Shown here: piece by piece, positions 10,122 through 61,846 of the stretch | Layout of the letters: each line of letters starts with the position of its first letter | How positions within the stretch are numbered: the stretch's first letter is position 1 | NCBI GenBank assembly: GCA_017504435.1 | Contig: JAFVRD010000035.1 | Coordinates: forward strand, 24,606-88,605 | Origin: Lentisphaeria bacterium | Lineage (GTDB): Bacteria; Verrucomicrobiota; Lentisphaeria; Victivallales; Victivallaceae | Length of the DNA: 64,000 bases | Direction: 5' to 3' | Notes under the pieces: model-generated | Database searches by the model: none | What the model saw: the letters and a program-made list of their open reading frames with translations, nothing else | Told to the model about the DNA's origin: nothing | Made by a program: the position numbers and the translations under genes

Positions 10122-13100
10122 ATGAAAAAAATTCTGATCACATTCTTCTGTATGACTGCATTGCTGCTGGCAGCAGATGATTTGCTCCGCAATGCGCCAT
10201 GGAGATTTGTTACTGCTTCCGGAGGAACTGGAAGTGTGGAAAAAATTGCCAATGGAACAAGGAAGGTCATTTCTGATGCCGATGAAGGTTTTGTTTCGTT
10301 TGCCCATTCCCGCAATCTACCGATCACCCCCGGGAATAAATACCGGATCACCATGACCTGTGTCCGGGAAAATGCCGACACTAACATGACCATGCTGGTA
10401 AGTATCGGTAAACGTACTCCCTGGGCAGCTGTCAAAGCCGATGGTATCGCCGGCAAACCGGAAATTCTCAGCTATGAATTTACTGCTGAGCCGGGAGAAT
10501 CCGGCATGCGTGTCCACGCTATCGTATCCGGTCACGGCAGTGTCACGATCACCAGTGTAGCCAGAAGTATATCCGCTCCGGAAGTTAAACCGGTCAAATC
10601 CGTCCCCAAAGCGGCAATAGATCCTGCCATTCACGATTTGCTGCGTGATGCCCCATGGCGTACAGTCACAGCCGATGGCGGCAAAGGCAAAACCCTCTCC
10701 CTTGCTGACGGCTCCAGAAAAATCATTTCTGAATTGAATAAGGGACTTGTCTCATTTGCCAACACCCGGAACCTGCCAATTATGCCAGGAAAAACTTATC
10801 TTGTGGAAGCAGAATTTGTCCGCAGCAGCAACGCGCCATTCTCAATGCACGTTCAAATCGAAAAACAACGCCCGTGGGTCGCAATCAAAGCTGATGGTAT
10901 CGCCGGTAAACCGGAACGCATCAGTTACCGGTTCACCGCCAATCCGGGAGAAACCTGGATGCGTATCCACGCTATCGTATTCAACAAAAATACCGTTACG
11001 ATCCAAAAAATCACCTACCGTGAAACATCCGCAACTGACCCGGATGAAAACTGGCTGATTACCCGTCCGTGGCGCACTGTCACTGCCGATGGCGGCAGCG
11101 GCACAAGTATCAAACAAAGCGATGGAAAATGGCTCGTTACCAGTAACCTTGCTCAAGGAATAGTCTCTTTTGCCAATGCAGCAGATCAACAAATCATTCC
11201 CGGCAAAAATTACCGGGTAACAGCCAAAATCATTCGCAACAGCAGCGATGTTTCCGTCACTATGCTCAATCAAATCGCCAAACGGAGACCCTGGGCAGCA
11301 ATCAAAGCCGACGGTTTGACCGGGCAGGAAGATACACTTACTTATGATTTCACTGCCGGAGAAAATGAAAAAACTTACCGGCTGCATTTCATCGTTTCCG
11401 GTAAAGGCTCCGTGCAGATAAATTCTGTAAATGTCAAAGAGTTGTCCCATGCAGAACTCCAAGCTGCCCAAAATGCCCGCAAAGTTACCGGAACCGATTT
11501 CCGCGGCTCAGCATTGCGCCGATTCTGGAAACCGGTCAATATGCGCTCCCGTATTCCCGGAAAAATTCAGGCTTTCACTTGTACTCCTTACGGGGGATTG
11601 GAGTGCAATGATCTGGATTGGCAGGCGGACAAAATAAAGTCCATTGACATTCGTATGGCGGCGAATGAACCGGGATTCCTCCGCCTGGAGTTTACCACCG
11701 CCGCCGGACAAAACTCGTATCTGTCATGCGCCGCATACCCGTATGAAATGCGTGATTATTCATTTGACGTGGCATCCAATCCGGCATGGCAGGGAAAAAT
11801 CACCAATCTCCGTATCATCTGGCGCGCCTATGAACGCAACTGTACTTTGGATTTTGAACGTATTTCCGCAAACAACAGGAACAATATCATCCCATTTGCC
11901 GCAGATAACAAATCCCGGCAAATCACCACCATAGACCTGCTTCCCCGTGCCGAATGTTCCTTGTCATGGCAAAACGGCAGCAACCCCGGAATGACACTGA
12001 CTTTTTTGGACCGCAGCAACCGTAAACTTGATCAATTTGTCCTCCCCGCAGAAAAAAAACAAGGTGTTTTTTTCGTACCGGAAATGTGTACCCGGGCAAT
12101 ACTTGACATTGACCGCAATGCAAAAACTTCCGGATTTCCCTGTATAGAAGAACTGAATTTGAGCAAACCGGATAAAAAAGCGTTTGACTGGCGCGGCAAA
12201 TGGATATGGAGCAACACCGAATTCGGACCAGCCAATGCCAATGTCTGGTTCAAAAAAGAATTCACCTTGGACGGAGAGGTAAAAGAAGGAGCTGTCATCT
12301 TTACCGCGGATGATATGTTCACAGCCTACATCAACGGACAGGAGGTCTGCTCAGGAGATTCATGGCGCACGCCGGTACGGGCTGATGCCGCAAAATTTCT
12401 CAAACCCGGTCTCAATACCATCATCATTAAAACCCACAACGTTTCTGCATGGGGCGGCATGATCGGTGAAGTTTATGCCCAAGCCGGCGGAAAAGTATAC
12501 TTTTTCCCCACCGATGATTCGTGGGTCTACAAAGTCGGCGGAGACAATCCTCCTGAAAAATACACTGCCAATGCACTGGTTTTGGGCGCACCGCCAACTT
12601 CGCCGTGGGGAGATCTGGTCTATTCTTACATAGGCCCCAAAGGCAATGTAGAAATCAAATCTGCCGGAGAACTCTCAGCTGTGATCAAACCCGCAACAGT
12701 AATACCGGTAAAAACCGATTCTCTCACATTCAAACTGAATTATCCCGACGGTACTTCACGCCAGGTCTCCGGCAAAGTGTCTCCCGGTACTGAACAATGG
12801 CTGCCCGGAAAAGAATTACCCATCAAAATCGCTCTGCCGGAAACTGCCGTTGCCGGAGTAACTGCAGAATTTGATTCTCTGTTTATCAACGCTTCCGGTA
12901 AACTCTGCACACTTCCGGCTGCGGACATCAGAAAACTGGAAATCCCCACGGCAAAAATCATCGGTACCGGCTCACGGGCTTACATCACCATCAACGGAGA
13001 AAAATATCCGCCTATATACTATGACGGTTATCATAAACCGGCTAACTCATGGATGCTGGACAAGGCTAAAAAAAGCGGATGCAGAATCGTCCGTATAACC

Positions 13101-15023
13101 TGCTCAATGCACCAGATGTGGAAAAGCGAAGAAAACTTTGACTTCTCCATACTTGACCGGTTTATGGATGAATTCGCCGTCAATGCTCCTGAAATCAAGG
13201 TGATCTTGCAGATCGAACTGACCATGCCCGACTGGTGGTTGGAAAAATATCCCGATGATACCGTTACTTATCATAACGGCATTCCCCGTTCCAAAGCTCA
13301 TGACCGGCAAGCCCTCGCCTCTGCCCGCTGGCGGCAGGATGGAGCGCACTCTTTGCGCAAAATGATCCGGCATATCAAAAGTTCTCCCTACGCAGACCGG
13401 ATCTTTGCCATCGGCCCTGCCGAAGGCTGGAACTGCGAATGGTTCTGGAGCGTACATCGCGGTGCGACCAGCGGTTACAGCAAGTCCGATTATGCAACAT
13501 TCCGCACATATCTCAAAGAAGCTTACGGTGATGATGCCGCATTTGCCCAAGCATGGAACATTCCCGGTCTGACATTTGAAAACTTCAAAATGCCCCTGCC
13601 TGCGGAAATTGACCGTGCCGGCTGCGGTGAATTGCTCGATCCGGTCAAAGACCGCCGGATCATGGATTATTTCCGTTTCCGCAACCGGGCACTCGGCGAT
13701 GCGATCGAAACATTCGGCAAAGTCATCAAAGAAGAATCAGATAACCGTTATCTGGTGGGAGTTTACTACGGTTATTTTGTCATGTTCAGTCACGTCAACC
13801 GCAAACTTCAAACTGTAGGTCATCTGGAAATCGAAAGACTCGCCCGTTCCCCGTACGTGGACATTTTCTGGGCGCCATCCATATACCACTGGCGTCAGAT
13901 CGGCATGTCTGACGGAGTTATGCAAGCCGCTGAAACACTCACGTCTCACGGTAAACTTGTTGTCGTGGAACAGGATATCCGGACATTCTCCGAACCCAGT
14001 CACATGCAAGCCGGCAACGGCAGAACCGACAATCCGCATCAAACGATCAATGCCATGATCCGGGCATTGGGCATGCTTGCCACCCGCGGCATCGGAACCC
14101 ATTGGTATGATATGCACGAAATCTGGTTCCGGGAAAACGTCCTGCTGGAAATCATCAAGAATATCAATGAAACCTATATGGCTCTGCCGCAGGTAAAGGA
14201 CACCACCCCGATCGAAGTATGTATTGTCAGCGATCAGGAAAATGCTTATTACACCCGGCATAATTTTGCCCGTAATATCCATAAAGGCACGGTTTATGAA
14301 TTCCTGCGTACATTCAATCGTACCGGAGTGCCTTTCCGTCATGTGTTTGTCAAAGATCTTTTGGAAAAAGACCGGATCCCGGCACATAAATTCTACATTT
14401 TGACCAATTTGGTCATGATGACTCCGGAAAAATACCGGCAGCTGGAACAACGCTTCGCCGCTGAAAACGCCACCGTACTTCACCTTTATGCCACCGGAGC
14501 CAGCCGCCATGATGCACCACCGTCAGCAGCTAATATGGAAGAGTTGCTGGGAATGAAATTCCGCATGGATATGACTCCCCGGCTCCCGGATTTCACTCCA
14601 ATTGCTAACGTGAATATGCCTGCATTTGCCAATGCGATTTATTCGCAGCCGTGGTTCTATCCGGTTTCCGGTTTTGACAAGGTCCTCGGTACCGACCGTG
14701 CCGGCACTCCGGTACTGGTAAAGAAAAAAATCAATGGTATAAATCACATTTTCTCCACCCTGACCACGCCTCATGTTGATGTGTTACGGGAACTTTTCCG
14801 CAATGCAGGAATACATATCTATTCACCGGACAGCCGGAATAATCTGCACATCGGTAATGATCTGCTGTTTATTACCGCAACCCACACCGGCAACACCAGC
14901 GTAAATCTGCCTTCCAACCGGAAATTACGCGGCATTATCGGAGAACATAATGGAAAAATTTTTGAATCCGGTGCCGATATTCCGGTCGTAAACGGAGACT
15001 GTTACGGATTTATTGTCGAATGA
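10122..15023 (+). CDS. Giant secreted multidomain glycosidase: signal peptide, 3 CBM-like repeats, galactose-binding-like domain, GH42-like (clan GH-A) catalytic region
   Basis: Signal peptide MKKILITFFCMTALLLAADD. Three ~130-aa repeats. Jelly-roll motif (NVWFKKEFTL..FTAYINGQEV). GH42-like motif MWKSEENFDFSILDRFMDEF...MPDWWLEKYPDD. Confidence 0.6.
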   Translation: MKKILITFFCMTALLLAADDLLRNAPWRFVTASGGTGSVEKIANGTRKVISDADEGFVSFAHSRNLPITPGNKYRITMTCVRENADTNMTMLVSIGKRTPWAAVKADGIAGKPEILSYEFTAEPGESGMRVHAIVSGHGSVTITSVARSISAPEVKPVKSVPKAAIDPAIHDLLRDAPWRTVTADGGKGKTLSLADGSRKIISELNKGLVSFANTRNLPIMPGKTYLVEAEFVRSSNAPFSMHVQIEKQRPWVAIKADGIAGKPERISYRFTANPGETWMRIHAIVFNKNTVTIQKITYRETSATDPDENWLITRPWRTVTADGGSGTSIKQSDGKWLVTSNLAQGIVSFANAADQQIIPGKNYRVTAKIIRNSSDVSVTMLNQIAKRRPWAAIKADGLTGQEDTLTYDFTAGENEKTYRLHFIVSGKGSVQINSVNVKELSHAELQAAQNARKVTGTDFRGSALRRFWKPVNMRSRIPGKIQAFTCTPYGGLECNDLDWQADKIKSIDIRMAANEPGFLRLEFTTAAGQNSYLSCAAYPYEMRDYSFDVASNPAWQGKITNLRIIWRAYERNCTLDFERISANNRNNIIPFAADNKSRQITTIDLLPRAECSLSWQNGSNPGMTLTFLDRSNRKLDQFVLPAEKKQGVFFVPEMCTRAILDIDRNAKTSGFPCIEELNLSKPDKKAFDWRGKWIWSNTEFGPANANVWFKKEFTLDGEVKEGAVIFTADDMFTAYINGQEVCSGDSWRTPVRADAAKFLKPGLNTIIIKTHNVSAWGGMIGEVYAQAGGKVYFFPTDDSWVYKVGGDNPPEKYTANALVLGAPPTSPWGDLVYSYIGPKGNVEIKSAGELSAVIKPATVIPVKTDSLTFKLNYPDGTSRQVSGKVSPGTEQWLPGKELPIKIALPETAVAGVTAEFDSLFINASGKLCTLPAADIRKLEIPTAKIIGTGSRAYITINGEKYPPIYYDGYHKPANSWMLDKAKKSGCRIVRITCSMHQMWKSEENFDFSILDRFMDEFAVNAPEIKVILQIELTMPDWWLEKYPDDTVTYHNGIPRSKAHDRQALASARWRQDGAHSLRKMIRHIKSSPYADRIFAIGPAEGWNCEWFWSVHRGATSGYSKSDYATFRTYLKEAYGDDAAFAQAWNIPGLTFENFKMPLPAEIDRAGCGELLDPVKDRRIMDYFRFRNRALGDAIETFGKVIKEESDNRYLVGVYYGYFVMFSHVNRKLQTVGHLEIERLARSPYVDIFWAPSIYHWRQIGMSDGVMQAAETLTSHGKLVVVEQDIRTFSEPSHMQAGNGRTDNPHQTINAMIRALGMLATRGIGTHWYDMHEIWFRENVLLEIIKNINETYMALPQVKDTTPIEVCIVSDQENAYYTRHNFARNIHKGTVYEFLRTFNRTGVPFRHVFVKDLLEKDRIPAHKFYILTNLVMMTPEKYRQLEQRFAAENATVLHLYATGASRHDAPPSAANMEELLGMKFRMDMTPRLPDFTPIANVNMPAFANAIYSQPWFYPVSGFDKVLGTDRAGTPVLVKKKINGINHIFSTLTTPHVDVLRELFRNAGIHIYSPDSRNNLHIGNDLLFITATHTGNTSVNLPSNRKLRGIIGEHNGKIFESGADIPVVNGDCYGFIVE
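10179..11435 (+). repeat. Three tandem, diverged protein-level repeats (aa 20-146, 172-297, 311-438) inside the 1633-aa CDS
   Basis: Shared pattern: DLLR(N/D)APWR.VTA.GG.G...DG.RK.IS....G.VSFA..RNLPI.PGK.Y......R........M...I.K.RPW.AIKADGI.GKPE..SY.FTA.PGE...R.HAIV. Confidence 0.7.
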
Positions 15024-19781: not shown

Positions 19782-19848
19782 TTCTGAAATCAGTAAAACA
19801 GCTCCGTGGGGAAAGACTCCCGCCACATTCACCCAATTTCCGCAATTT

Positions 19849-19884
19849 TCACCTGAAAACAACAGTTTTCAGGTGACTTTTTTT
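19849..19884 (+). terminator. Rho-independent terminator of gpmI
   Basis: TCACCTGAAAAC-AACA-GTTTTCAGGTGA, a perfect 12-bp stem followed by CTTTTTTT. The stem and T-tract also encode the last codons (KKVT*) of the minus-strand 1681-aa ORF. Confidence 0.7.
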
Positions 19885-22800
19885 GCTTTCGCTGTATGCC
19901 AATTATCGGCAACCAGCGCAGCTCCGGACATATCGCCGGATTCAATGACCATGTTCAATATCTCCATTTCCCGCTGTGACGGCATATCTTTCACAAACTC
20001 CGCAGTCGGGAATACATAGCGGTACAAAGTCTGATACACCTGACGGTTGGTCATCACCCACTTTTTGTCAACTACCGGCTCTTTCGCTTCAAACAACGTT
20101 TTGACCTGCGACAACAACGATTCTTTCTGCGCTGCTTTGCGGTCGGAGGTGAGGGAAAGTTTCAACTCCGGTTGTGCGGTTCTTTCTCTTTCGGGAACGT
20201 ACTCTTTGACGGAGTAATCAATTTCTACGCCGATTTTTTCAAGTTCAGCACGGAGAGACGGAGTTACCACATTGGCGGGGATAGCAATATCTTTTCCGGC
20301 AATCAACTCTTTGATATGCTGTGCGACTTCGGAATCCGGAACGATGCGTACCGGTTTGTCCCAGCGGGAGAGCATAACTTTTCTTTTACCGGTCAATTTG
20401 CTTTGCACAACCCCGGCTTTCCAATCTTTCATGCCGACAGCATCATTGGCTCTTTTTGCTTTATATCCGCTGGTCAATTCACTTTCAGGTACATGAACCT
20501 CAACAGTCACCAATTCCGGTCTCTGATATGCTTCACTGAATTGATCATTGAGCATGACATTGGATGAGTGAATGTATGGATTATACAACACACCGCCAAT
20601 GGTCTTGCCATTGCCTTTGTTCAGGTCAAACAAATATTTTATTTTGCCGTCTTTGGCGATTTTGGCTTTTGATAATTCCGGGCGTTCATCTGCTTGTTCC
20701 CATGCACCAAGTTTGATTTCCGGTCCCCATTTGCCGGCGATTTTTGCCGCCATCGGGGAATGCAGTTTTCCGTCCGGTCCAATCTGCACAGAACGGTACA
20801 ATGTGAGATAATCCCCGGATTTTTCTTCCGCATCAAGTTTGTCGATGATCTTTTTGTCAGTGACCAGTGAAAACTTGATGCCGTTGCCGACTTCTTCTGC
20901 AAGCTGCTCGTTGTTTTCAAGTTCAGCAACTTCTTCCGGAGTGAGAGTAGTGCTTAAAGAATTTTCCGGATTTTTTTCAGAAGCGGGGTTGACTTTTGCC
21001 TCCGGAGAAGTTATATTATTTTTATATTGTGGGTTGATGGGGACCAGATCGGATAATAATCCGTGAGATGTCCGCAGACCCGCAATTATTTTTTTTGTCT
21101 GCTTCTCGCCTCTTGCATGACCATAGAAACTTTCAAAATACTCCTTGCCATCTTTTTCATAAGTACGAAAGGTATATATTGGCTTGTCCTCTGAATTCAA
21201 GAGTTCATAAAAACCTTCCTTGGTTTTCGCGTCAAACCTTCTTTTCCCGTTAAATGTCTTTTCAAAATTATTGATAAACTCTTGTAAATAGATTCCCCCT
21301 CTTGTAGCATACCCCAATTCAAGAATATGCTTTCCTAATCCTGATTGCACCCCTTTGCTTTCTAAATAAACACGATTCCTTCCATTAAAAATACTGCCTT
21401 TTCTGCTCAATATTTTGAAAAATATATGATTTGCAGGAAGGTTGATAGATTTTGCATATTCGTAAAGGTTGTTGATATCCGTGATATTTGCTTTCGCCAA
21501 CTCGCTTACTCCGGCATTTTCCATAAGATAAATACGGTCTTCGGGAGCGACATCGGCGGTTTCATCCAGCAGGGATTGACGGCGTTCTTCCATGCTCATT
21601 CGGGAACGGGTAACGGCGTTACGGGATTCAACTTCTCCGGCAAGATTGTTGTACCCGATAAAAAGCGGTATCTTCTGGAAAATCTTATTGTACTTTTCTT
21701 CGGTCATGCCTTTAGCAACAAGTTTATCCCAGAGTTTTTCCAATTCCGTATCGTTTGCATTTTCATCTGTCAAAAGCATTGCTTCAGCTTTTGAGACTTC
21801 AAAACCGGCATCAGCAAGGTGTTTGCGAAGTGAATTTGCCCTTGCGTTATGTCTTGCTTCGGGGGAAATTTTTTTGTCTGCTTCCAAACTGCCGCCTTTG
21901 GCAAAGCCCTCGATTTGCTGAACGGCATGCTGAACTTCGTGGATCAAAATATCTTCTATGATTTCAACAAGTTCCTGTCTGCGGGATTCCTTGCCTTTCT
22001 GATCTTCAATATAATCAATGCTTTCTGCAACCGGTCTCAGTTTTTCGTTATTGATAACGATTTTGTTGCCTACTTCATCAAAATAAGCGTTCTGCGCCCA
22101 AGGCAATTCGCTGAAATCCAGTTTGATATTTTTCAATTCCGGATATGCCTGAAAGAGTTCCGGAGCATTGACATAATCACCCAACTTGCCGGAAGTCCAT
22201 ATCATATCAAAAGGCGTTCTCTCGTATTTTATGCCATCCGGTAAAGTCGCTTCGGTTTTCCATTTCAAATCCGGAATTTCCATTCTCCACTTGCCGTCTT
22301 TGCCTTTTTCCCAGCCGGTGGCAAGTTTGATCGTTTTCGCATCTTCACCTTTGCCGGTCATCTCTTTGGCAATCCGCAGATTGTCAAGCAACGTTTCAGA
22401 ATTATCCATCCGGGCGGCTCCACGGTCGCCAACCATTGAAAACAGTACCCGGTTGCCGGATTCGTCGGTTTTCTCATCAAGGGTGTTAAAAAGGCTCTGC
22501 AAAGTATCATCAATTTTTACAGCATCTTCTCCGGTCGGGTACGGATAGGTATTTTCTTCACCTTTCCAATCTGTTTCTGAAACGCTGCTGTTCAGAAAAT
22601 CATTCACCTGACCTCTGCTTTCCAAAATCCTTGAGATGTAATCTCCAAAAGCTCTTGCCGCCATTTCGGTAGGCTGGGCATAATAATTTTTCTTGGTAAA
22701 AGCATCAAGTCTTTCTGCGCGGGTGACATAGGAGCTGTCGCCGGTGAAAAGAATATTCAACTTCTGGAAGATGTTTTTCACTTCATCCCTGATGCCGCTT

Positions 22801-24914
22801 CGGAATTTCCCGTCAGTAGCCGGAGTGGTTTTGCTGTCGGCAAAATAATAGTCAAGAGCATGCCACCATTCGTGTGCCACATTTCCTGCTCCACGGGTTC
22901 TGGTCAGGTTGATAACGTTCTTTTCCGGTTCGTAATGCGCTTCTGCATTGCCGGAGCCTCTGGCACCATAGGCGAATGCCAATTTACCATTGAGCGAAAT
23001 TGCTTCGGGAGATATATCAAGCGCATTTGCCATATCCATCAATGAATCATAAAGCGCATTCAAAGCGGTCTGACGTTCTTTTTGAGAAACTGAATTACCA
23101 AACTCAACCGCCCGGAAATTGAATCTTTCGGCAAATTCTTTTGCTGAAACATCCTTGCCGTTGCGGTAATCAATACCGACACGATCCCGGAGAGTTTCTG
23201 CATTGAAGCGCAGACGCAAAGGTTTGTTTTTTCCGGTAAACTTGCCTTTGCGTTCAGCCTTTTTCTGTTCTTCAATTTCTGCCGCCTGATGCTGAAGATC
23301 ATCAGCGTGTTCTTCGCTGTATTTCCATGCTTCTCTCAAAGATTTGAAATACTGTAAAATGATTTCACCGAAGCCACGGATTTTTGCCGCAAGGTAATAT
23401 TCACCCTTGTGTTCTCCGGATATGGCTTTGTAGGTGAGAATTTTATATTTAGGTTGGTCAACAGTGGTGTGTTTTTTGACTATTTCTATGTAATATTTTA
23501 TGGCATCTTCAACGTTGTCAAAAAATCCTGTCTTACTGGCGTGATAAGTCCAAACCCGGTATCTTTTTTGCCAATCTTCATCCCGGTTTTTTGATGCCCA
23601 CTCCGGTAGTTCCGGCTTTTTGCCGTTTTCCCATGTGTCCGTAATGTCAAAACCGGACAAATCGACATTGGCATACTCTACACCAAGCTCCTTGAGCAGT
23701 TGTTCCATTGCCTGACTGCGGATGATTACAGTGCGTTTGCCATAATCGGTAAAAACATATCCTGCTTCTGCCATATCAACTGATTCTTCACCGATCAGAG
23801 CGTTTTTTGCGTAAACCGCATAGAATTTTGCAACATTGAGATCTTGTTTGCCATCAAGAGTTTTGTGCCGCTTTACTCCGGCTTTTGCCATATCATATGC
23901 GGTTTTGAGTTTGGCAAGTACATCAATTTTTATTCCGGCTTCAAGCAGTTTTGCATAATCAGGTTTGGGGAACATTTTGGCAAATGTGGCACCGTTCAGA
24001 TTGATTTTATCGGCATATCTGCGGATAATATCTTTTTTTGCGCCGCCGATTTTTTCGCCGTAATCCTCGATCTTTTCAGCGGCGGATTTATCGGACTTTT
24101 CCGACACTTCGGGAGTGCTGGATTTTTTGCCCTTGCTACGCATTTTGTCAGAGAGGGTCGGCTCCTTTTCCGGTTTTGCTTCGGTTTTGGGTGTATAGCC
24201 GATCTCGGCATCTGATACGGTTTCTTCAACCGTTTTACGCATCTTTTCAGAGGTAGTGCGGGTGGCTTTCTCGATTTCCCGGGCGTTGAGCGTTTTGCCG
24301 TCCAGCGTGAAAGCATTGCCTTTTTTGGTGAATGTTTTGCCGTTGACCGTATGTTCACCATCGGGCAAATCGGCAAACGCCATGATCCGCTCCCGGCTCC
24401 CGGATGGCGCGGAGGTGATTTTGGAGATGGTGGATTCAGCAGAGGTTACTGATCCTGATTTTTGTCCTCCGGATACTTGTCCAGAATCTCTATCTGCTCC
24501 GGTGTCAATTCGCTGAACTTCATCGCTCCGCTTTTCAGTTCTCCCCGAAGCCAATTCGCTCCCTCTTGATTCAGTTGCTTCTCCATCGCTTTGCTGAAGT
24601 CTTTCAAGAATTGCTCTTGCTCTGGCGTAAGATTCGGCATTGATAGCCTCCTTTATCTGATTTTTGGTATATTTGGGTTTATTTTCAAGTTCTTCAATGG
24701 TGATTTCAGATGCTTTGCCGTCTGTAACCTCTTTTATAATATACTGCACCTTGTCGCCAAAATCACGCACCAGTTTCAAAAAGTTTTCTTTAGCGATGGC
24801 ATGAGTATTGATAAAAGTTGTTTCTGGAACGATATGACCATCGGCACTCTGATTACGTTTCTGTACCCCATTGAACCAAGCATCTGCCGGATTGCGATAG
24901 ACAAAGGCAAGCAA
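19869..24914 (-). CDS. Polyvalent-protein-like giant protein with two zincin-type HExxH modules (LPD1-like module plus a second metallopeptidase-like module); start uncertain
   Basis: 1681-codon open frame. HEWWH (22860-22874) sits in GARGSGNAEAHYEPEKNVINLTRTRGAGNVAHEWWHALDYYF. HEVQH (21927-21941) is followed by EGFAKGG and LAGEVESRN. EDYGEKIGGAKKD motif at 24030-24068. K/E/S-rich linkers. The TTG at 24914 has no SD; the first in-frame ATG is at 24383. Confidence 0.65.
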   Translation of the reverse strand: MLAFVYRNPADAWFNGVQKRNQSADGHIVPETTFINTHAIAKENFLKLVRDFGDKVQYIIKEVTDGKASEITIEELENKPKYTKNQIKEAINAESYARARAILERLQQSDGEATESRGSELASGRTEKRSDEVQRIDTGADRDSGQVSGGQKSGSVTSAESTISKITSAPSGSRERIMAFADLPDGEHTVNGKTFTKKGNAFTLDGKTLNAREIEKATRTTSEKMRKTVEETVSDAEIGYTPKTEAKPEKEPTLSDKMRSKGKKSSTPEVSEKSDKSAAEKIEDYGEKIGGAKKDIIRRYADKINLNGATFAKMFPKPDYAKLLEAGIKIDVLAKLKTAYDMAKAGVKRHKTLDGKQDLNVAKFYAVYAKNALIGEESVDMAEAGYVFTDYGKRTVIIRSQAMEQLLKELGVEYANVDLSGFDITDTWENGKKPELPEWASKNRDEDWQKRYRVWTYHASKTGFFDNVEDAIKYYIEIVKKHTTVDQPKYKILTYKAISGEHKGEYYLAAKIRGFGEIILQYFKSLREAWKYSEEHADDLQHQAAEIEEQKKAERKGKFTGKNKPLRLRFNAETLRDRVGIDYRNGKDVSAKEFAERFNFRAVEFGNSVSQKERQTALNALYDSLMDMANALDISPEAISLNGKLAFAYGARGSGNAEAHYEPEKNVINLTRTRGAGNVAHEWWHALDYYFADSKTTPATDGKFRSGIRDEVKNIFQKLNILFTGDSSYVTRAERLDAFTKKNYYAQPTEMAARAFGDYISRILESRGQVNDFLNSSVSETDWKGEENTYPYPTGEDAVKIDDTLQSLFNTLDEKTDESGNRVLFSMVGDRGAARMDNSETLLDNLRIAKEMTGKGEDAKTIKLATGWEKGKDGKWRMEIPDLKWKTEATLPDGIKYERTPFDMIWTSGKLGDYVNAPELFQAYPELKNIKLDFSELPWAQNAYFDEVGNKIVINNEKLRPVAESIDYIEDQKGKESRRQELVEIIEDILIHEVQHAVQQIEGFAKGGSLEADKKISPEARHNARANSLRKHLADAGFEVSKAEAMLLTDENANDTELEKLWDKLVAKGMTEEKYNKIFQKIPLFIGYNNLAGEVESRNAVTRSRMSMEERRQSLLDETADVAPEDRIYLMENAGVSELAKANITDINNLYEYAKSINLPANHIFFKILSRKGSIFNGRNRVYLESKGVQSGLGKHILELGYATRGGIYLQEFINNFEKTFNGKRRFDAKTKEGFYELLNSEDKPIYTFRTYEKDGKEYFESFYGHARGEKQTKKIIAGLRTSHGLLSDLVPINPQYKNNITSPEAKVNPASEKNPENSLSTTLTPEEVAELENNEQLAEEVGNGIKFSLVTDKKIIDKLDAEEKSGDYLTLYRSVQIGPDGKLHSPMAAKIAGKWGPEIKLGAWEQADERPELSKAKIAKDGKIKYLFDLNKGNGKTIGGVLYNPYIHSSNVMLNDQFSEAYQRPELVTVEVHVPESELTSGYKAKRANDAVGMKDWKAGVVQSKLTGKRKVMLSRWDKPVRIVPDSEVAQHIKELIAGKDIAIPANVVTPSLRAELEKIGVEIDYSVKEYVPERERTAQPELKLSLTSDRKAAQKESLLSQVKTLFEAKEPVVDKKWVMTNRQVYQTLYRYVFPTAEFVKDMPSQREMEILNMVIESGDMSGAALVADNWHTAKAKKVT
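24446..24640 (-). CDS. Embedded 64-codon ORF with canonical SD, out of frame with the giant ORF
   Basis: Minus strand reads AAAGGAGG-CTATCA-ATG. Translation MPNLTPEQEQFLKDFSKAMEKQLNQEGANWLRGELKSGAMKFSELTPEQIEILDKYPEDKNQDQ looks protein-like, while the main frame over the same nucleotides is low complexity. Confidence 0.3.
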   Translation of the reverse strand: MPNLTPEQEQFLKDFSKAMEKQLNQEGANWLRGELKSGAMKFSELTPEQIEILDKYPEDKNQDQ

Positions 24915-24934
24915 AGGAGTTTGACCATTGTCAA

Positions 24935-25201
24935 TTACTTGCTGAATACTCTTTCGGGCGGCTTCTCATGATATATCAGCACCGCTTTGCCGGAATCGTT
25001 TTTGAGACTTTTTCCGTCTTTCATGGCAAATCCACTTGAATTATCCGGAGATTGGGGTATAGTATTATTGGCGGAGTTCTCCGGGGTCACAGTCGCATCC
25101 CCTTTATCGCCATGAGCGTCGGAACTGGGATTGGCGGGAGACTCCGCCGCTTGGGGCAATGAATTCTGTGATCCCTGCGCGGTTGCCAAGTACAACGGCA
25201 T
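24935..25201 (-). CDS. Hypothetical low-complexity ORF (possible decayed 5' fragment of the island)
   Basis: The track ORF 24935..25276 starts at a TTG inside the fabK terminator stem, so I trimmed it to the first ATG (25201). S/P/N/D-rich, with no recognisable domain. Confidence 0.2.
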   Translation of the reverse strand: MPLYLATAQGSQNSLPQAAESPANPSSDAHGDKGDATVTPENSANNTIPQSPDNSSGFAMKDGKSLKNDSGKAVLIYHEKPPERVFSK

Positions 25202-25258
25202 ATCCTCTTTTACATTTTGATACTCATCCCATGTAATATTCTGCTTGATGCCGCACTT

Positions 25259-25301
25259 ATAAAAAAAACACCTCAAAGGCTGTTTTCAACGTTTGAGGTG
25301 T
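25259..25301 (-). terminator. Rho-independent terminator of the fabK-like gene
   Basis: Minus strand: ACACCTCAAA-14-nt loop-TTTGAGGTGT followed by TTTTTTTT. Confidence 0.65.
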
Positions 25302-25338
25302 ATTTCGTTTTGCAACAGATTTTTCAGTTTTACATGCA

Positions 25339-26373
25339 TTATTCAGCAAAGAAATTTTTCATTTTCTGCAATTCCTTTTCGCCGTCTGACATGATTTCTT
25401 GAATAACATCATTAACAGAGGTGATCTTATCCATCAACCCGACAGACTGCCCCGCCATTACCGAACCATATTCAACATCTCCATCCACAACGGCTTTGCG
25501 CAGAGAACCGACCCAGAAACGCTCCAACTCAAGCTGTGCTTCCTGACGGGTGGTCGTTCCTTCGGCAACTTTTTTGACCAATTCCAACTGAAGTTTGGTA
25601 AATTCCTGAGTTCCGTGATTGCGAATGACCCGCACTGACACCACCGGCAATTTCGGATCAAACTGGGCAGTGGACATAGCATCCCGGGCGTTGGCTTTGG
25701 CAAAGTAATCTTTGAACCGCGGATGCGCCTGACACTCCTCTGTCATTACAAAACGGGTTCCCATCTGAATACCAGCCGCCCCGCAGAGCAGTAAATGAGC
25801 AGTAAGTTTACCGGTCGCGACTCCTCCGGCTACAAAAATCGGCAAGGTATCTCCGAAACGGAAAAGTAATTGCTGGATCAACACCGTAGTTGACACATGT
25901 CCGATATGTCCACCCGCTTCTGCTCCTTCCAGAACCAACGCATCTGCACCGCTGCGGATCATCCGTTCGGCAATGGAAATCGTCGATGCAAAACAAATGA
26001 CCTTTGCCCCGGTTTCTTTAATCGCGGCGATTTCTTTTTCTTTGGGAATACTGCCGGCAAAAACAATATAAGGTACCGGATTATCCAGACTTTTAAGCAA
26101 AGCAATGTGTTCCTGATATGCCGGTGCAATAGTGATGAGATTTACTGCAAATGATTTATCAGTCAAAGTACGCAATTCGGATATTTGCGCTTTAAGAATT
26201 TCCGGTGGGGTATTACCTCCGGCAAGACAGGCAAATGCACCATTGTTACAAACAGTTGCCACAAGTTTCGGATCGCTGACCCAAGTCATCGCTCCGCAAA
26301 TGATCGGATAACGAACATTCAGGAACTCTCTGCCGCGCTGCATCAATCGGTCCATATATTTGTAATCTTGCAT
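25339..26373 (-). CDS. fabK: FMN-dependent enoyl-ACP reductase II / nitronate monooxygenase family
   Basis: YPIICGAMTWVSD...LAGGNTPPEILKAQISELRTLTDKSFAVNLI closely resembles the FabK N-terminus as I recall it. Start moved to the ATG at 26373, which is preceded by AAGAGGTG; the track start at 26502 adds 43 unlikely residues. Confidence 0.7.
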   Translation of the reverse strand: MQDYKYMDRLMQRGREFLNVRYPIICGAMTWVSDPKLVATVCNNGAFACLAGGNTPPEILKAQISELRTLTDKSFAVNLITIAPAYQEHIALLKSLDNPVPYIVFAGSIPKEKEIAAIKETGAKVICFASTISIAERMIRSGADALVLEGAEAGGHIGHVSTTVLIQQLLFRFGDTLPIFVAGGVATGKLTAHLLLCGAAGIQMGTRFVMTEECQAHPRFKDYFAKANARDAMSTAQFDPKLPVVSVRVIRNHGTQEFTKLQLELVKKVAEGTTTRQEAQLELERFWVGSLRKAVVDGDVEYGSVMAGQSVGLMDKITSVNDVIQEIMSDGEKELQKMKNFFAE

Positions 26374-56041: not shown

Positions 56042-59000
56042 TCAGCGGATTATTTCAAATAAAGCTGTACCATTGGCACGCAAATCAAACCGGATCACGT
56101 TACTGTTTTCAGCAACGATTTTTCCGGAATGAAGGTCTTTCACCTGTGCGACCTTTTCCGGCAGACATACTGTTTTTTTACCGCCGACTCCGGAATGCAA
56201 AGAGAGGAAATTACCATCCGTACTGACAAAATCATGGTCGTTGTCCACATAGGTATGAACTCCCGCCGCACGGTAAATATTGCGGATCATCCGGGAGGGT
56301 ATCGCCGGCAGTGCCGCATAAATGCTGGTCGCACCTCTGACTTTTTTCACACCGAGTACCGGCTCACCGCTGGTAAAGTTGGCAAGGATCTTCGCTTGCG
56401 GATCATCCAGCGTGAAGTACGGCAGTGCCGGAACCACATTGTAACGGTATCTGCCGGAAACCGTGGAACCTTTCATACCGGAGGTGTAGGGAGCGACCTC
56501 TTTGTTGACCATTGCCAGCGGCAGCATTTTGCCAGGAACTTTGAAAGGTTTGACTTTGAATCCGGTCAACTCCTCAACCGCAGCTGCACTCAAATTATTG
56601 TATTTATCCAGATAACCGTCGCCCCAACGCCACAGCAGGGTCTTGTCTTTGCTGTGCAATCTGTTATGTACCGCTTCAAGCAGTTTGCCGCTGATCTGAT
56701 GGGTGCCGCCGAAAACAAAGACCTTGTACTGATCCACCGGAAACTCATCTTTCAGGATATCCTGCAGATAGAAAATGTCAAACTGCGTACCGGAGGTGGA
56801 CAATTCAGCCGCCAGGAATCCGCCGGTGGCACCGAGGAAAAAGTGCATATCACGTTCCGTAAAGTCACCGGTATGTTCAATGGCAGCTGTGTCGATCAGC
56901 AGACAGACTTCCGGTTTCCAGCGGATGGGCATTTCCAACTGCCGGCGGGACATATTCTGCAGCAGAGCGACTTCATCCATGATACCTGCGTTGTTCAACC
57001 AGCCGGGCCAGAATGTGTAAATACGGAATCCGGCACCGTGACGGAGCGTGGTCATCATCTCTTTTGCCCAGTGAGACTGGCTGGCAAACAAAGTGTCCGG
57101 TCCCCAAGTGGTCGCGTACGCACCGATGCAGAAACTGCGCAGATCCATTTCCGGACTCCAGATCTTGTTGCCCAGATGGGCACTGCCCGGGGCACCGTAC
57201 TGGGCGGAGGACAGACCGTTGCGGCGCAGATTGTAGTTGCCCGGATTACCGAACATATCCACGCTTTTTGAATTGTACTGGTAATAACCGGTGGAAACGC
57301 AAATACCGTGATAACCGTAGTGCATCGCACCGGAAATACCGGCACTGTCACTGGGATAAAGCCAAGTCAGACAGCGGCCGCCGGTGGCATCTTTGATCGT
57401 CTTGGTCATGGCATTGGTCAAATCCAGCTGTGCCCAGCCGAATGCCGCCACATAATCAGCCACAGCGCGGTTGACAAAGAAATTTGCCCCGGCACGTTCC
57501 GCATCACTGGGAATCTGCGCAGTTTCAAAGGTCACTTCCTTATTCTGCCACGCTGCCCGCAGTGCTTCGACCGTAACATATCTCTTTTTCAGGAAATCCC
57601 GGAAGTAACGGAGCATCGCAGCACTGTAATCCCCGCGTCCCAACTGTCCGGCATAACCGCCGTACGGGATGTAGGGATACAACTGATTGTCCATTTCTCC
57701 GGAAATACCATAACCGATGATCTTCTCTGAAATCGGGGATTTTTCAAAATATTCCACTGTGGCACGAATCAAATCGGTATACATTTTGGTTTTCAGCTTT
57801 GACGCGTGGGAAATACTGACCCGGGCACGATCCGGAACTTCCGACATATCCCGATAGGGATGACCGACTTTGCCCAGCCGTTTCGGACCGTCGAGCCACA
57901 ATTTGTATCCTTTGCCGGTGAGCATCAGATCGCCCTGCAGAGCCGGATCTTTGGCGAAATTTTTGGGCATACCGTTGCAGATAAGCGGCACGATATAGGC
58001 ATCCGGATCATGGCGGAGCTGCGCCGCAGCATCGATCAGAACCTGCTCGGTGATGGAGAAATCATAGTTGCCGGAACCGTCATCGATCAAATCAGCATTG
58101 TGAATAAACGGCTGGGTCGCTCTCATATTGATATAGATCTGGTGAACTTTTATTCCCACCCAGTCATTCATCTGCCGGACTTCCGGACAATAGGGTCTGC
58201 CGGTACAATACATACCGGACGGATGCGGTTTGCCATTGATAAACAGCGTGGACTTGCCATTGCTCTGCTTGACCACGGCAACCGGGCGTTTGAAAGGTTT
58301 CTCTTTGGCTCCGATGGTAACGTCTCCAAGTTTCAGATAAATTCCGTCTTTGAAACGGATACGGTACAGCTCCAGAAAACACTCATATTTACCGGGAGGC
58401 ATGAACATCGGAGCAAAAGCGATATTCAAATTTTTCCGGTCAAGTTTGATTTCCTGCGGAGCAAGTTCCAAACGGAATCTCCGGTTGCCCTGAGTAAAGA
58501 TCACTCTGCCGATGGTAACTTCTTCAGGGATATCCCCTTGCAAAGCGATATTCATCACTCCGTCGGCAGGAAATTTATCGGAATAACTTTTTTTGCTGAC
58601 ATTCAGCAATTCGCGCGGACCGATATAAAGATCTTCCCGGCGGTTGTTGACGATTGCCGCCGTTCCGCCATTGCCGAAATCACGCGCCGAACCGTCCCGG
58701 ATACCGGCAAATGCCCAAGCTGAATCGTCAAAATCATTTTCGCTCCATTTCCCGGAGGGAACTCCGGAAAAAACTTTGCTTTTGTCATCGGATACAATAA
58801 AGTATTCTTTGCCGTTCACATCACGGACAAAGAGTTCAAACATGGCTTTTTTACCACCGGATGAACAACTGACCAACAACGCCAGCGTATTTTTTCCGGA
58901 CTTCAATACCGGAGTAACATCAGCTACTCCGGGCGCAAATTGCCCACCGTTTCCGAAACCGCTGCCATTCACAAAAAGTTTGGCCCCGTTATGTCCGAGA

Positions 59001-61609
59001 AAACGGATGTACGCCTCCTGCGGTGCGGCATCAAGAGTAAAAGTACGGCGGATCACCGCTTTGCCTTTTTCAATGCCATCCCACAACGCATAGCCCTGCC
59101 ACTCATTGTTGTAAATAGCACGTTCCCGGTTGACTGTAAAATTTTTATCCACCGCGACAGAACGGATAATGGCACTGCCGGAGTTGCTGCTGACGGTCAA
59201 AGTTGCCAGCGATGCGGTTGACGGGACTTCAAAATCCAAAAAACACGGCGGAGCAAGCGGACGCTCATACCGGGCCAGCACTTTATCTCCGGCATCGCGG
59301 AAAACCAGAGTCACGACTGTATCCGGAGCGACATTGGCGGAATCAATGATCATCCGGTATTCGACCAACGGATTCAACCGGGCGGTTTTCCACATAAAAT
59401 TGCCGGGGAATTTGATTTTGAGACCTTTTTTGACTTTTTCAAGTTTCACGCCGTCGGCGATAAAATCCCGGCTGATAAGAGCGTCGGCACTGTTGATATT
59501 GAGTGTGGAGAAATCTTCAAAAAATATCCGGTTGCCGGAAGGTTGAAATTTTTTAACGGTGACATCATCAAAATTGCATTTGAATACCCCGTCACCGCCG
59601 GTGACTGCAAAACGGAGAAAACCATCCCGGGAAGCCTTGTATCTCACCGTGAATTCACGCCAGGAATGTTCGGGAAGCATGGATTCATGCCGCTGATAGG
59701 CACGCAATGCCCGTCTGCCGGGGCCCATGACCCGGATATCTTCACTGACCCGGCCCTTTTTGTCTTCAAGTTTAAAGAGTGCGGAAATATTTGCATCGGT
59801 GAGGCTTTCCAGACGGTAACGCAGAGAAAGTTGATAAGTTTCGCCTTTTTTCACGACGGCGCGGCTGGCAGTCGGCACGGCGATCTCAAAATCTCCGGCA
59901 AAGTTGGTTTTTTCGACCCGCAGAGAGGATTTTCCGGAAAAAGCGTTGACAGTATCGAGCGAGAATTTCTGTTCAGAACCCTCGGCTTTATCCAACCGCC
60001 ATTGAGCCAAGTCACCTGATTCAAAATCAAGCCTCAAATCAGAAACACCCGCAGTTTCATTAGCGGGTGTTTCGGTTTCATTCACAATTTTTACTGAGAT
60101 ATTTGTCAACACTCCATCTGCTGTACGCCCGCTGTAACCGCCGAAACGGAAACCGCTTCCACAGCAGAAACTCTCCATGGGGAACTTCCGCAGCAATCTG
60201 CCGTCCAAATAGAGTTTGCCTTCGCCTTTGGCCCATGTCAACCGGACTTTGAAAGTTTTACCGGCGGCAACCGGAACGACGGTTTCACAACCGGGCAGCG
60301 GTTTTTTATCATCGTAATGATGGAAAAAGAGCCGCAATTTGCCATTGGAAAGTTGATTGATACCGAGTTCGGTTCTGCCGCTGCGGAAAAACGGATAGGT
60401 ATTGATTTTGCCGGGAGCCAATGCTCTGGAGAAATTACCGGTGAATTCAAAAGAGATCTCACCGGATTTTGCACCGGAAAGCATTTCCGCATTGATACTT
60501 TCGCCGGGAGCATCGAGTTGTTTTTCGCTGTATATTTCAGCCATTCCGCTGCCGGAGGCGGCAGTGGTGGTATCGGTGATGACAAAGTTCTCAAATTTAC
60601 CGTCGGCGAGGCGGAGCGGTTTGCCGCCGCTGCTCATCCCGCCGATGGCGAATTTCCGTCCCCACGGGATGGAGGTCAGTTTGGATGAGCCGATCAGTCT
60701 GCCGTCAAAATAAAGTCTCGTACCGGTTTTGCCCCATTCGGCTTTTACGGTAAAGGGTTTGCCGGGAATGATTTTGACCACTTTTTCCATGCCGAATGAT
60801 TTTTTATTTTCATCGCGGGGGTGGAAAAAGAGCCGGAGAGTTTTCTCGGAAAGCTGTTGGATGCCCAATTGATGTGCGCCGGAATAGAACAACATATAGA
60901 GGTTCTCTTTGCCGCGTTCAAAACGGTCAAATTTTCCGGTGAATTTGAAAGAGATCGTACCGCCGTCAGGATTGAGGACGCCATCGGCATCTTCATAGAT
61001 GCACTTTTCAGTGGCATCGTATTCATCCCGGGTATAGGTCGGAGTTGCCGCGGAGGCGGTCTCTGCCTTCAGGGAATCGGTGATCACGATATTTTCGAAC
61101 ACACCTCCGGCGACCCGGATCGGCTTGCCGCCGCTGCTCATGCCGCCGATCATGAAATTCCGTGCCCACGGAATGGAGGTCAACTTGGATGAACCGATGA
61201 TTTTACCGTCGAAATAAAGTTTCGTACCGGCTTTGCCCCATTCGGCTTTTACGGTAAAGGGTTTACCGGGAATGATTTTGACCACTTTTTCCATGCCGAA
61301 TGATTTTTTATTTTCGTCGCGGGGGTGGAAAAAGAGCCGGAGAGTTTTCTCGGAAAGCTGTTGGATGCCCAACTGATGTTCGCCGGAATAAAACAGCATG
61401 TAGAGATTGTATTTCTCCTGACCGAAACGGTCAAATTTTCCGGTAAATTTAAAAGATATTGACCCGCCGTCAGGGTCCAGAATGCCCTCGGAACTGTTGC
61501 CGAAGCCTTTGACCGAAGCATCATATTCTTTCAGGTTGAATGTTTCAACCGCCGTCAAGGTCAAAGCGCAGAAACACAACGCCACGACTAACGATAAATA
61601 TCTCTTCAT
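56042..61609 (-). CDS. Giant secreted protein: signal peptide, 3 LamG/concanavalin-like repeats, CBM-like and galactose-binding-like domains, GH42-like region
   Basis: Start set to ATG 61609 ([20 protein letters not shown] signal peptide); the track start at 61717 adds 36 unlikely residues. Architecture parallels the 10122-15023 protein. Confidence 0.65.
60620..61453. repeat. Near-identical 330-bp direct repeats, 504-bp period, inside the giant CDS (60620-60949 and 61124-61453)
   Basis: Both copies encode [10 protein letters not shown]...[37 protein letters not shown]...GGMSSGGKP. The central ~130 bp differ at only a few positions by eye. Confidence 0.85.
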
Positions 61610-61846
61610 AAAACAGCCCTTTCTATATTTTACGTTTTTTGAAAACTGTAAGTTTACCCGAATTACTGTAATAAATATAGTCCCAAACTTGTAAAAAAAC
61701 CTTAACTTGACAATCAATTACAAGCACAAAACATCCAAAGACGTCTATTATTATACACAACACACCAGTGTTTGTCAATAGAAAATGAAAAAAAAAATCA
61801 AAAAATTAAAAATTCGTTATTTTTTTGCTCTTCACATTTTCAGGTA

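Follow-up and report, generated by a model that had tools for sequence, protein, structure and literature searches.

A probable stranded and partly eroded phage-type polyvalent gene between gpmI and fabK in the chromosome of a gut Victivallaceae bacterium

The stretch of DNA analysed here (64,000 nucleotides (nt), positions 24,606 to 88,605 of contig JAFVRD010000035.1 in assembly GCA_017504435.1; hereafter the window) is part of a metagenome contig of a gut Victivallaceae bacterium (Lentisphaerota). Between gpmI and fabK, its minus strand carries an open reading frame (ORF) for 1681 amino acids (aa) that begins with a TTG codon (19869..24914) and whose size is far beyond chance. An earlier reading made without database searches (the sequence-only reading) had recognised in it a protein of the polyvalent kind described by Iyer et al. 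2017 (J Bacteriol; PMC5512222), encoded outside any recognisable mobile element. Its coordinates for the ORF and for every quoted motif were reproduced exactly: HEWWH occupies aa 681-685 (nt 22860-22874), HEVQH aa 992-996 (nt 21927-21941) and EDYGEKIGGAKKD aa 283-295, while LYRSVQ begins at aa 1372 and VEVHVPESEL spans aa 1471-1480. The assignment was likewise borne out, by matches to Pfam, PHROG and NCBIfam families and by the housekeeping character of the rest of the window.

The profile scan that had been proposed as a check placed LPD5, LPD1 and LPD23 above the Pfam gathering score and matched the CLCA_X zincin profile. Homologues were drawn from a collection of 5.8 billion proteins and form a set of 48 polyvalent-protein homologues, designated here by P numbers. 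The ORF is divided as follows:

19869..24914, minus strand: main ORF of 1681 codons, apparently the eroded body of a phage-type polyvalent protein (Pfam, PHROG, NCBIfam, homologues)
24015..24452, minus strand: conserved linker module with EDYGEKIGGAKKD (24030-24068), 52-82% identical to P0001, P0002, P0004 and P0005
23127..23504, minus strand: LPD5, aa 471-596 (Pfam PF18799, 33.3 bits, cutoff 27)
22473..23183, minus strand: zincin 1 of the CLCA_X/phage-type MPTase (metallopeptidase) kind, aa 578-814, with HEWWHALD at 22851-22874 (NCBIfam NF041907)
22470-22700, minus strand: LPD1 helical domain, aa 739-815 (Pfam, 56 bits), forming the C-terminal part of zincin 1
22263..22391, minus strand: LPD23, aa 842-884, region of TGWEKGKDGKW (Pfam PF18838, 42.2 bits, cutoff 27)
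21600..22127, minus strand: second zincin-like module (probable), aa ~930-1105, carrying HEVQH (21927-21941) and LAGEVESRN (21618-21644)
21045..21497, minus strand: middle region, aa ~1140-1290, matched by P0004 only, in a 37% alignment, and by no Pfam family
20211..20873, minus strand: conserved C-terminal domain, aa ~1348-1568, with the motifs YNPYIHSS, LNDQF and ESELTSGY
19869..20099, minus strand: C-terminal tail, aa 1606-1681, whose sole homologue is the remnant P0098, reaching to aa 1639; the last codons and the stop lie in the gpmI terminator

At least two unrelated domains of the polyvalent repertoire are combined in this polypeptide (LPD5, LPD1, LPD23 and the CLCA_X MPTase), which by their family matches identifies it as a polyvalent protein. 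In addition, six PHROG families of giant phage proteins match it, PHROG_616 among them. Across 21 homologues the motif D[FY]GEKIGGA[KR]KD hardly varies, and it marks the start of the LPD5-zincin-LPD1 module. A sequence search of the PDB with the protein returned nothing significant.

The CLCA_X profile (NCBIfam NF041907) covers aa 578-814 with an E value of 3e-47, at positions 3-247 of its 250. The score of 161.2 bits lies below the curated whole-protein cutoff of 260; because a near full-length domain match is thus paired with a sub-cutoff whole-protein score, the HEWWH block is, judged by its profile match, a domain related to CLCA_X and not a family equivalog. Within it, HEWWHALD (aa 681-688) joins the HExxH motif to an Asp three residues on, and a conserved His lies upstream in 'AHYEP'. 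HExxHxxD and an upstream His are the features given for the widespread phage-type MPTase (PMC5512222), and zincin 1 matches them. The CLCA_X zincin family was described by Lenart et al. 2013 (PLoS One; PMC3650047). Its members, mostly phage- or plasmid-borne, share with the window protein the HExxH with a downstream Asp and nearly the whole 250-position profile, but are stand-alone proteins of ~260 aa, whereas here the zincin is one domain of a 1681-aa protein. We firmly assign the HEWWH module, on these motif and profile grounds, as a zincin hub domain of the polyvalent type. The sequence-only reading had called this block (aa ~598-690) LPD1-type; that family is indeed present, but the block is the zincin itself, and the LPD1 of Pfam is the helical domain that follows it (aa 739-815).

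The second proposed zincin fared less well. An AlphaFold 2 (AF2) model of the HEVQH module has a mean predicted local distance difference test (pLDDT) score of 90, with strands within residues 108-132 of the modelled segment, HEVQH in a long helix (149-179) and the conserved GEVESRN in a helix at 269-280. This predicted topology fits a gluzincin, that is, a three-stranded sheet, an HExxH helix and a third-ligand Glu on a later helix. Matches to known families are weak: Pfam DUF4344 scored below its cutoff (E 0.053), the top Foldseek match in the PDB was the zincin PprI (8sln) at a non-significant E of 1.2, and hhalign aligned the module to the HEWWH module at P 8e-4 with a probability of 24%. 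Hence, of the two HExxH modules claimed, the HEWWH module is firm, while the HEVQH module has the motif and is predicted to have a topology in keeping with a zincin, yet gave no significant match in fold or profile comparisons; it is a probable, unproven peptidase.

The C-terminal domain (aa ~1348-1568) is 76% identical to P0001. Its motifs recur among the homologues as YNPYIH[ST]S, LNDQF and SELTSGY (also at locus L094, 10001-10672), and it exists in addition as a stand-alone protein of 227-262 aa. The core of its AF2 model has a pLDDT above 90; nevertheless no fold in the PDB was matched by Foldseek despite this confident model, no Pfam family was matched, and matches in BFVD were restricted to uncharacterised viral proteins. 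The domain occurs in 900 clusters (50% identity), nearly all of them within proteins of 2,000-7,500 aa, and at 223 IMG/VR loci, one example being an ORF of 5532 aa that directly precedes a portal gene. This C-terminal stretch of ~220 aa looks like an undescribed polyvalent-protein domain. We also considered a reading of the block as an R-S-E ADP-ribosyltransferase (ART; YR...HSS...ESE) and rejected it, there being neither a Pfam ART nor a Foldseek PDB match; moreover, the true ART-PolyVal of P0001 sits after that block.

No full-length homologue of the window protein was found in the 5.8-billion-protein collection, where similarity is mosaic, and scanning JGI metagenome contigs and IMG/VR with the whole protein yielded no close relatives. 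It has matches in 233 phage and 430 plasmid records, the phage set being dominated by Stx-converting phages and their relatives from E. coli. The homologues bear LPD38, InPase, MuF-C, PBECR1 and ART domains, of which LPD38 and InPase are listed as phage-only (PMC5512222). The natural home of these modules is, as the homologues indicate, the phage. The large LPD5/LPD38 proteins of Stx-converting and other lambdoid phages and of Bacillus phage Dartukuta (GenBank records H1-H25) share D[FY]GEKIGGAKKD, LPD5, the HEWWH zincin and LPD1 with the window protein, at 29-37% identity over aa 313-1009 of the latter. In contrast to it, they are encoded in complete phage genomes and have another architecture with other domains, and no match covers more than 31% of the query.

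The ends of the ORF and its surroundings contain the following features:

24483..24965, minus strand: zeta-toxin-like P-loop kinase domain of which the C-terminal half is present (51% identity to P0040 aa 756-917) and the Walker A half is absent
24935..25201, minus strand: 88-codon ORF, shifted to the -1 frame with respect to the main ORF, holding the tail of PBECR1 and the linker 'AESPANP...TPENSANNTIPQS'
25264-25305, minus strand: fabK intrinsic terminator, a hairpin followed by T8, 63 nt upstream of the 88-codon ORF
19849-19876, plus strand: gpmI intrinsic terminator, a hairpin followed by a T-run, enclosing the stop codon of the polyvalent gene (19869-19871)

The sequence-only reading had taken the ORF for one gene. 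Its 1681 codons are indeed open, but it is not an intact gene: in tblastn searches of the 48 homologues against the window, homology extends past the ORF start into the -1 frame (25192..25031), where it aligns to aa 250-317 of P0001 and to about aa 187-259 of P0002, P0004 and P0005. The 88-codon ORF of this stretch was called as a separate gene in two independent assemblies (L084 and L085) and matches no Pfam or PHROG family. It retains just the last few residues of PBECR1 and the conserved linker, the rest of PBECR1 and everything before it being gone. P0001 and P0005 carry PBECR1 (about aa 112-249) together with ART-PolyVal, and P0004 carries PBECR1 at about aa 112-249. By comparison, neither PBECR1 (PF18809) nor ART-PolyVal (PF18760) was matched in the window protein, the 88-aa ORF or the C-terminal 453 aa (Pfam, E up to 1). 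The ART-PolyVal domain lies downstream of the blocks shared with the window in both P0001 and P0005, and directly after the C-terminal block in P0001.

In P0001 the linker leads straight to '...RIMAFTELP', which corresponds to aa ~175-186 of the window protein, whereas in the window ~560 nt lie in between. There, the first ~160 codons of the main ORF are the kinase half, which relative to P0001 is an out-of-frame insertion in the linker. P0040 has the Walker A sequence GGNGSGKS at aa 729 and a Pfam Zeta_toxin match, and window homology begins only at its aa 756; no Walker A motif (G....GK[ST]) occurs in any minus-strand frame of 24400-25340. A programmed -1 frameshift joining the 88-codon and the main ORF was considered and rejected: no canonical X XXY YYZ slippery site was seen in the overlap, and the sequences on either side have different homologues, P0001 for the one and P0040 for the other. 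These alignments argue in favour of a recombination or deletion junction at the 5′ frame break.

Erosion is visible at the other end as well, where nothing homologous to the last 76 residues was found apart from a related remnant. The TTG start (24914) lacks a Shine-Dalgarno sequence such as the AAGGA or GGAG typical of window genes; Met178 (nt 24383), the first ATG in frame, has a GGAG 6 nt upstream. For the 88-codon ORF, GAGGA lies just 2 nt ahead of its ATG. Relative to its closest relatives the copy is, as far as the aligned sequences tell, demonstrably truncated: PBECR1 and ART are gone, the kinase is halved and the frame is broken. Three options had been offered for the gene, namely a domesticated effector, a relic of an element, or a lone conflict gene; with both ends eroded, the relic fits best, and domestication stands as its main rival.

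The intergenic setting was as described, with a lone gene between the gpmI and fabK terminators, both hairpins of which were located. Likewise, in the Pfam annotation of called genes no integrase, relaxase, type IV secretion system (T4SS), capsid or terminase gene occurs anywhere in the 64 kb, and all remaining genes are housekeeping genes; the label 'orphan' is correct. There is no tRNA gene in the window either. Neighbours include RNase G, UvrC, glycoside hydrolases, lytB, lpxA, gpmI, fabK, MatE, BacA, proC and PFK; gatCA, ruvC, rpsD, ATPases of a type II secretion system (T2SS), ETF, acyl-CoA dehydrogenase and rpoZ are also encoded. Two other large proteins are encoded in the window, one of 1633 aa with GH42 and GH2_N domains (10122-15023) and one of ~1855-1891 aa with LamG/CBM domains that adjoins an N_methyl (prepilin-type) gene (56042-61717).

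The T2SS ATPase genes lie ~18 kb from the polyvalent gene, and a large multidomain protein with peptidase modules might in principle be a secreted effector or toxin resembling polymorphic toxins and having no link to phage delivery. We regard this as very improbable: the protein showed neither an N-terminal domain related to secretion nor a repeat region or a C-terminal toxin domain, the downstream neighbour is gpmI and not an immunity gene, and all homologues found are of the polyvalent type or fragments thereof, with a domain set that is contrasted with polymorphic toxins in PMC5512222.

With a metagenome assembly as the source, an artificial joining of phage and host DNA might be suspected. 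However, the same junctions of gene and flanks recur in at least four contigs and lie in unique sequence. Two of these contigs, each from a different sample, were compared with the window and showed identities of 100% and 99.99%. Over the 21.7 kb compared around gpmI, an ENA contig of 106 kb matches the window at 100% identity, and an identical layout was found in the independent assemblies L084 and L085. An assembly chimera hence deserves next to no credence.

The deviant composition, noted before from a few lines of sequence, was confirmed by calculation over the whole window, in which the gene is the most atypical of the window in G+C content (GC), GC at third codon positions (GC3) and tetranucleotides. 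Its GC of 0.443 and GC3 of 0.439 are the lowest of the 28 window genes, and its tetranucleotide distance is 19.6, against a mean of 12.3 with a standard deviation of 2.0 (5-kb windows), that is, ~3.7 standard deviations above the mean.

The gpmI junction was compared with the gpmI loci of 80 related species (L001-L080), metagenome-assembled genomes of Victivallaceae/Lentisphaeria whose gpmI proteins are 71-92% identical to that of the window. Gene order is kept up to gpmI (nadK-like, spoU, lpxA, gpmI; window 19782-19900) and breaks right after the gpmI stop codon in all 80, with different genes following in each lineage, such as fabF/LysM/PhoH, aminotransferase/GDSL lipase or AXE1/DUF6259/fabK. 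Neither the polyvalent gene nor fabK directly follows gpmI in any of these species (0/80). Matches of the relatives to the window in tblastx were mostly short noise and were used only to place the end of synteny at about 19785-19830. The gene is lineage-specific, compositionally foreign and located at a break of gene order.

Its position at a synteny break, together with lone relatives whose loci differ from genome to genome and are each closely bordered by housekeeping genes, might indicate that the gene moves itself or belongs to a tiny non-autonomous element inserting between terminators. Against such an unrecognised mobile unit, the flanks contain only short, chance-level repeats and no terminal inverted or direct ones, there is no transposase, integrase or tRNA, and the 80-species comparison yielded no empty site, the intergenic DNA after gpmI not being alignable and no insertion boundary definable. 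Moreover, the ragged, out-of-frame 5′ end favours illegitimate recombination or deletion over a precise insertion, which leaves this explanation improbable.

The closest relatives in sequence are P0001, P0004/P0100 and P0005, 37-82% identical block by block, which are encoded at the following loci:

L081 8139-13268; L086 10001-14353; L087 26-3241; L174-L178: lone-gene relative loci (P0001, P0005, P0004/P0100)

Like the window gene they each stand alone among housekeeping genes: P0001 has a coaD-like gene on one side and AraC, PFL and Rnf genes on the other, P0005 is placed between thiamine genes and GT2 through UvrB, and P0004/P0100 adjoins GFO_IDH, AsmA, TopA and LpxC. Unlike it, they keep the N-terminal PBECR1 region, and P0001 and P0005 also the C-terminal ART; in addition they occupy other loci, with a shuffled order and content of domains. 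The annotation of one cluster member reads 'Lentisphaerae bacterium', and the neighbouring genes on the relatives' contigs have 50-64% aa identity to Victivallaceae loci, which points to Lentisphaerota as the likely source of the contigs of P0001, P0004 and P0005. The DNA of P0004/P0100 is present in at least 10 contigs from 5 JGI samples and identical in 7/7 copies compared.

Locus L174 shares with L175/L176, in identical form, the polyvalent gene, a divergent ORF of 186 aa and the entire right flank. The left flank past the 186-aa ORF (upstream of 7306) differs, with fucosidase genes in L174 and GH123/GH127-like genes in L175 and L176. By this alignment a strain-variable boundary adjoins the lone gene of the P0004/P0100 type. 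A further relative, P0003 (37% identical; locus L089, 106-948 and 4589-11803), is flanked by an InPase-domain gene and, on the opposite strand, by another polyvalent-like gene (2404 aa), which also matches the LPD23/HEVQH region of the window protein; polyvalent genes form a cluster at L089, a contig of low GC (0.39).

The related remnant mentioned above, P0098, is a stub of 336 aa with ~90% DNA identity to 21824-21502 and 20168-20001 of the window and a different middle part. It lies among housekeeping genes at L092 9950-11011, at the end of another contig of the same sample (ENA ERZ27256852 k141_152161, 230 kb), adjoins Metallophos, His_Phos, ABC, sigma-70 and purL genes, and was found again in a second sample (L093). 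P0098 may be a second, more decayed copy within the same genome. Across these sequences a putative decay series is visible, from the apparently intact lone relatives over the 5′-broken 1681-aa copy to the 336-aa stub.

Taken together, the locus probably represents a phage-type polyvalent gene that has become stranded in the chromosome of a gut Victivallaceae bacterium, partly eroded and now a decaying relic. The gene or a fragment of it would have entered the chromosome by illegitimate recombination at the gpmI/fabK junction. By analogy with the proteins of PMC5512222, the ancestral phage would have encoded the full protein beside its portal gene, packaged it in the virion and injected it with the DNA, and the zincin domains would have cut the polyprotein into effectors that blunted host defences. 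Because no virion delivers it and its recognisable effector ends are gone, the window copy is most likely without a role now and decaying. If it is still produced, the likeliest product would be a cytoplasmic protein of ~1500 aa starting at Met178, with the two peptidase-like modules kept.

Several observations weigh against decay. The 1681 codons are still open, which under neutrality would imply either a very recent event or selection. The ratio of nonsynonymous to synonymous substitutions (dN/dS) in the blocks shared with P0001 is 0.15-0.22, though this value averages both lineages, time spent in phages included, and reflects mostly the history shared with functional ancestors. The closest relatives are apparently intact lone genes, one of them identical across at least five samples, which hints at retention by the host. 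Finally, prophage debris beside the gene is absent, which is unusual for simple prophage decay.

The long open frame of 5 kb and the low dN/dS would equally be expected of a domesticated host gene. Lentisphaerota would then keep solitary polyvalent genes for their own use, for example to defend themselves against other invaders, and the window copy would be a shortened but working version with a translation start inside the ORF, for which the good Shine-Dalgarno sequence at Met178 would serve. Several lone relatives at different housekeeping loci in Lentisphaerota-like contigs, the recurrence of an identical P0004/P0100 allele and the defensive use proposed in PMC5512222 speak for it too. On the other side stand the absence of PBECR1 and ART, the recognisable effector domains of the relatives, the half kinase and the frame break; none of the defence families in PADLOC-DB v2 matches the protein at E up to 0.01, and no promoter-like site was found after the fabK terminator. 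The chromosomal copies at hand are identical or differ by one mismatch in 12 kb, so that dN/dS among alleles has no power and a test for selection finds no allelic diversity to work with. On balance we see domestication as possible but doubtful. A bolder proposal, in which Victivallaceae would have recruited solitary polyvalent genes as a single-gene conflict or defence factor, selected and reshuffled them between loci, with the window copy working and its C-terminal domain providing a new biochemical activity, appears unlikely to us.

Read as a stranded relic, the locus has a precedent. Iyer et al. 2017 distinguish polyvalent proteins with 'no distinguishing context' as genomic context (iii), and interpret such genes as gained from what remained of invasive elements, with a possible use in defence (PMC5512222). 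A portal/terminase or T4SS context (their contexts i and ii) is absent within the 64 kb, and the locus falls into context iii. The window protein resembles the proteins of that study in carrying LPD5, MPTase, LPD1 and LPD23 in one chain with the zincin as hub, and its gene resembles those of context iii in lying in a host chromosome without phage or T4SS genes. It differs in that the copy is truncated, with half a kinase and a broken frame, and in that its host belongs to the Lentisphaerota, a phylum absent from the text of PMC5512222. Since context iii has already been described there, the present locus is a new instance of a known category; what is new is the truncation, the decay series, the setting in Lentisphaerota and the widespread unannotated domain.

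For annotation, the locus would be better split into a pseudogene-like 5′ region and a domain-annotated body than listed as an intact 'hypothetical protein'. The C-terminal domain is the main by-product of this analysis, being predicted to fold confidently and common in giant phage proteins, and is a candidate new domain family. Moreover, the locus would provide a clean, well-delimited case of what remains of a giant polyvalent protein of phage once its gene is stranded in the chromosome of a host, and would extend the 2017 catalogue of polyvalent proteins to the Lentisphaerota. It also raises the question of whether lone polyvalent genes are junk or are retained by their hosts; the interest of the locus is moderate to low in itself and would become greater if the lone genes of Lentisphaerota prove functional.

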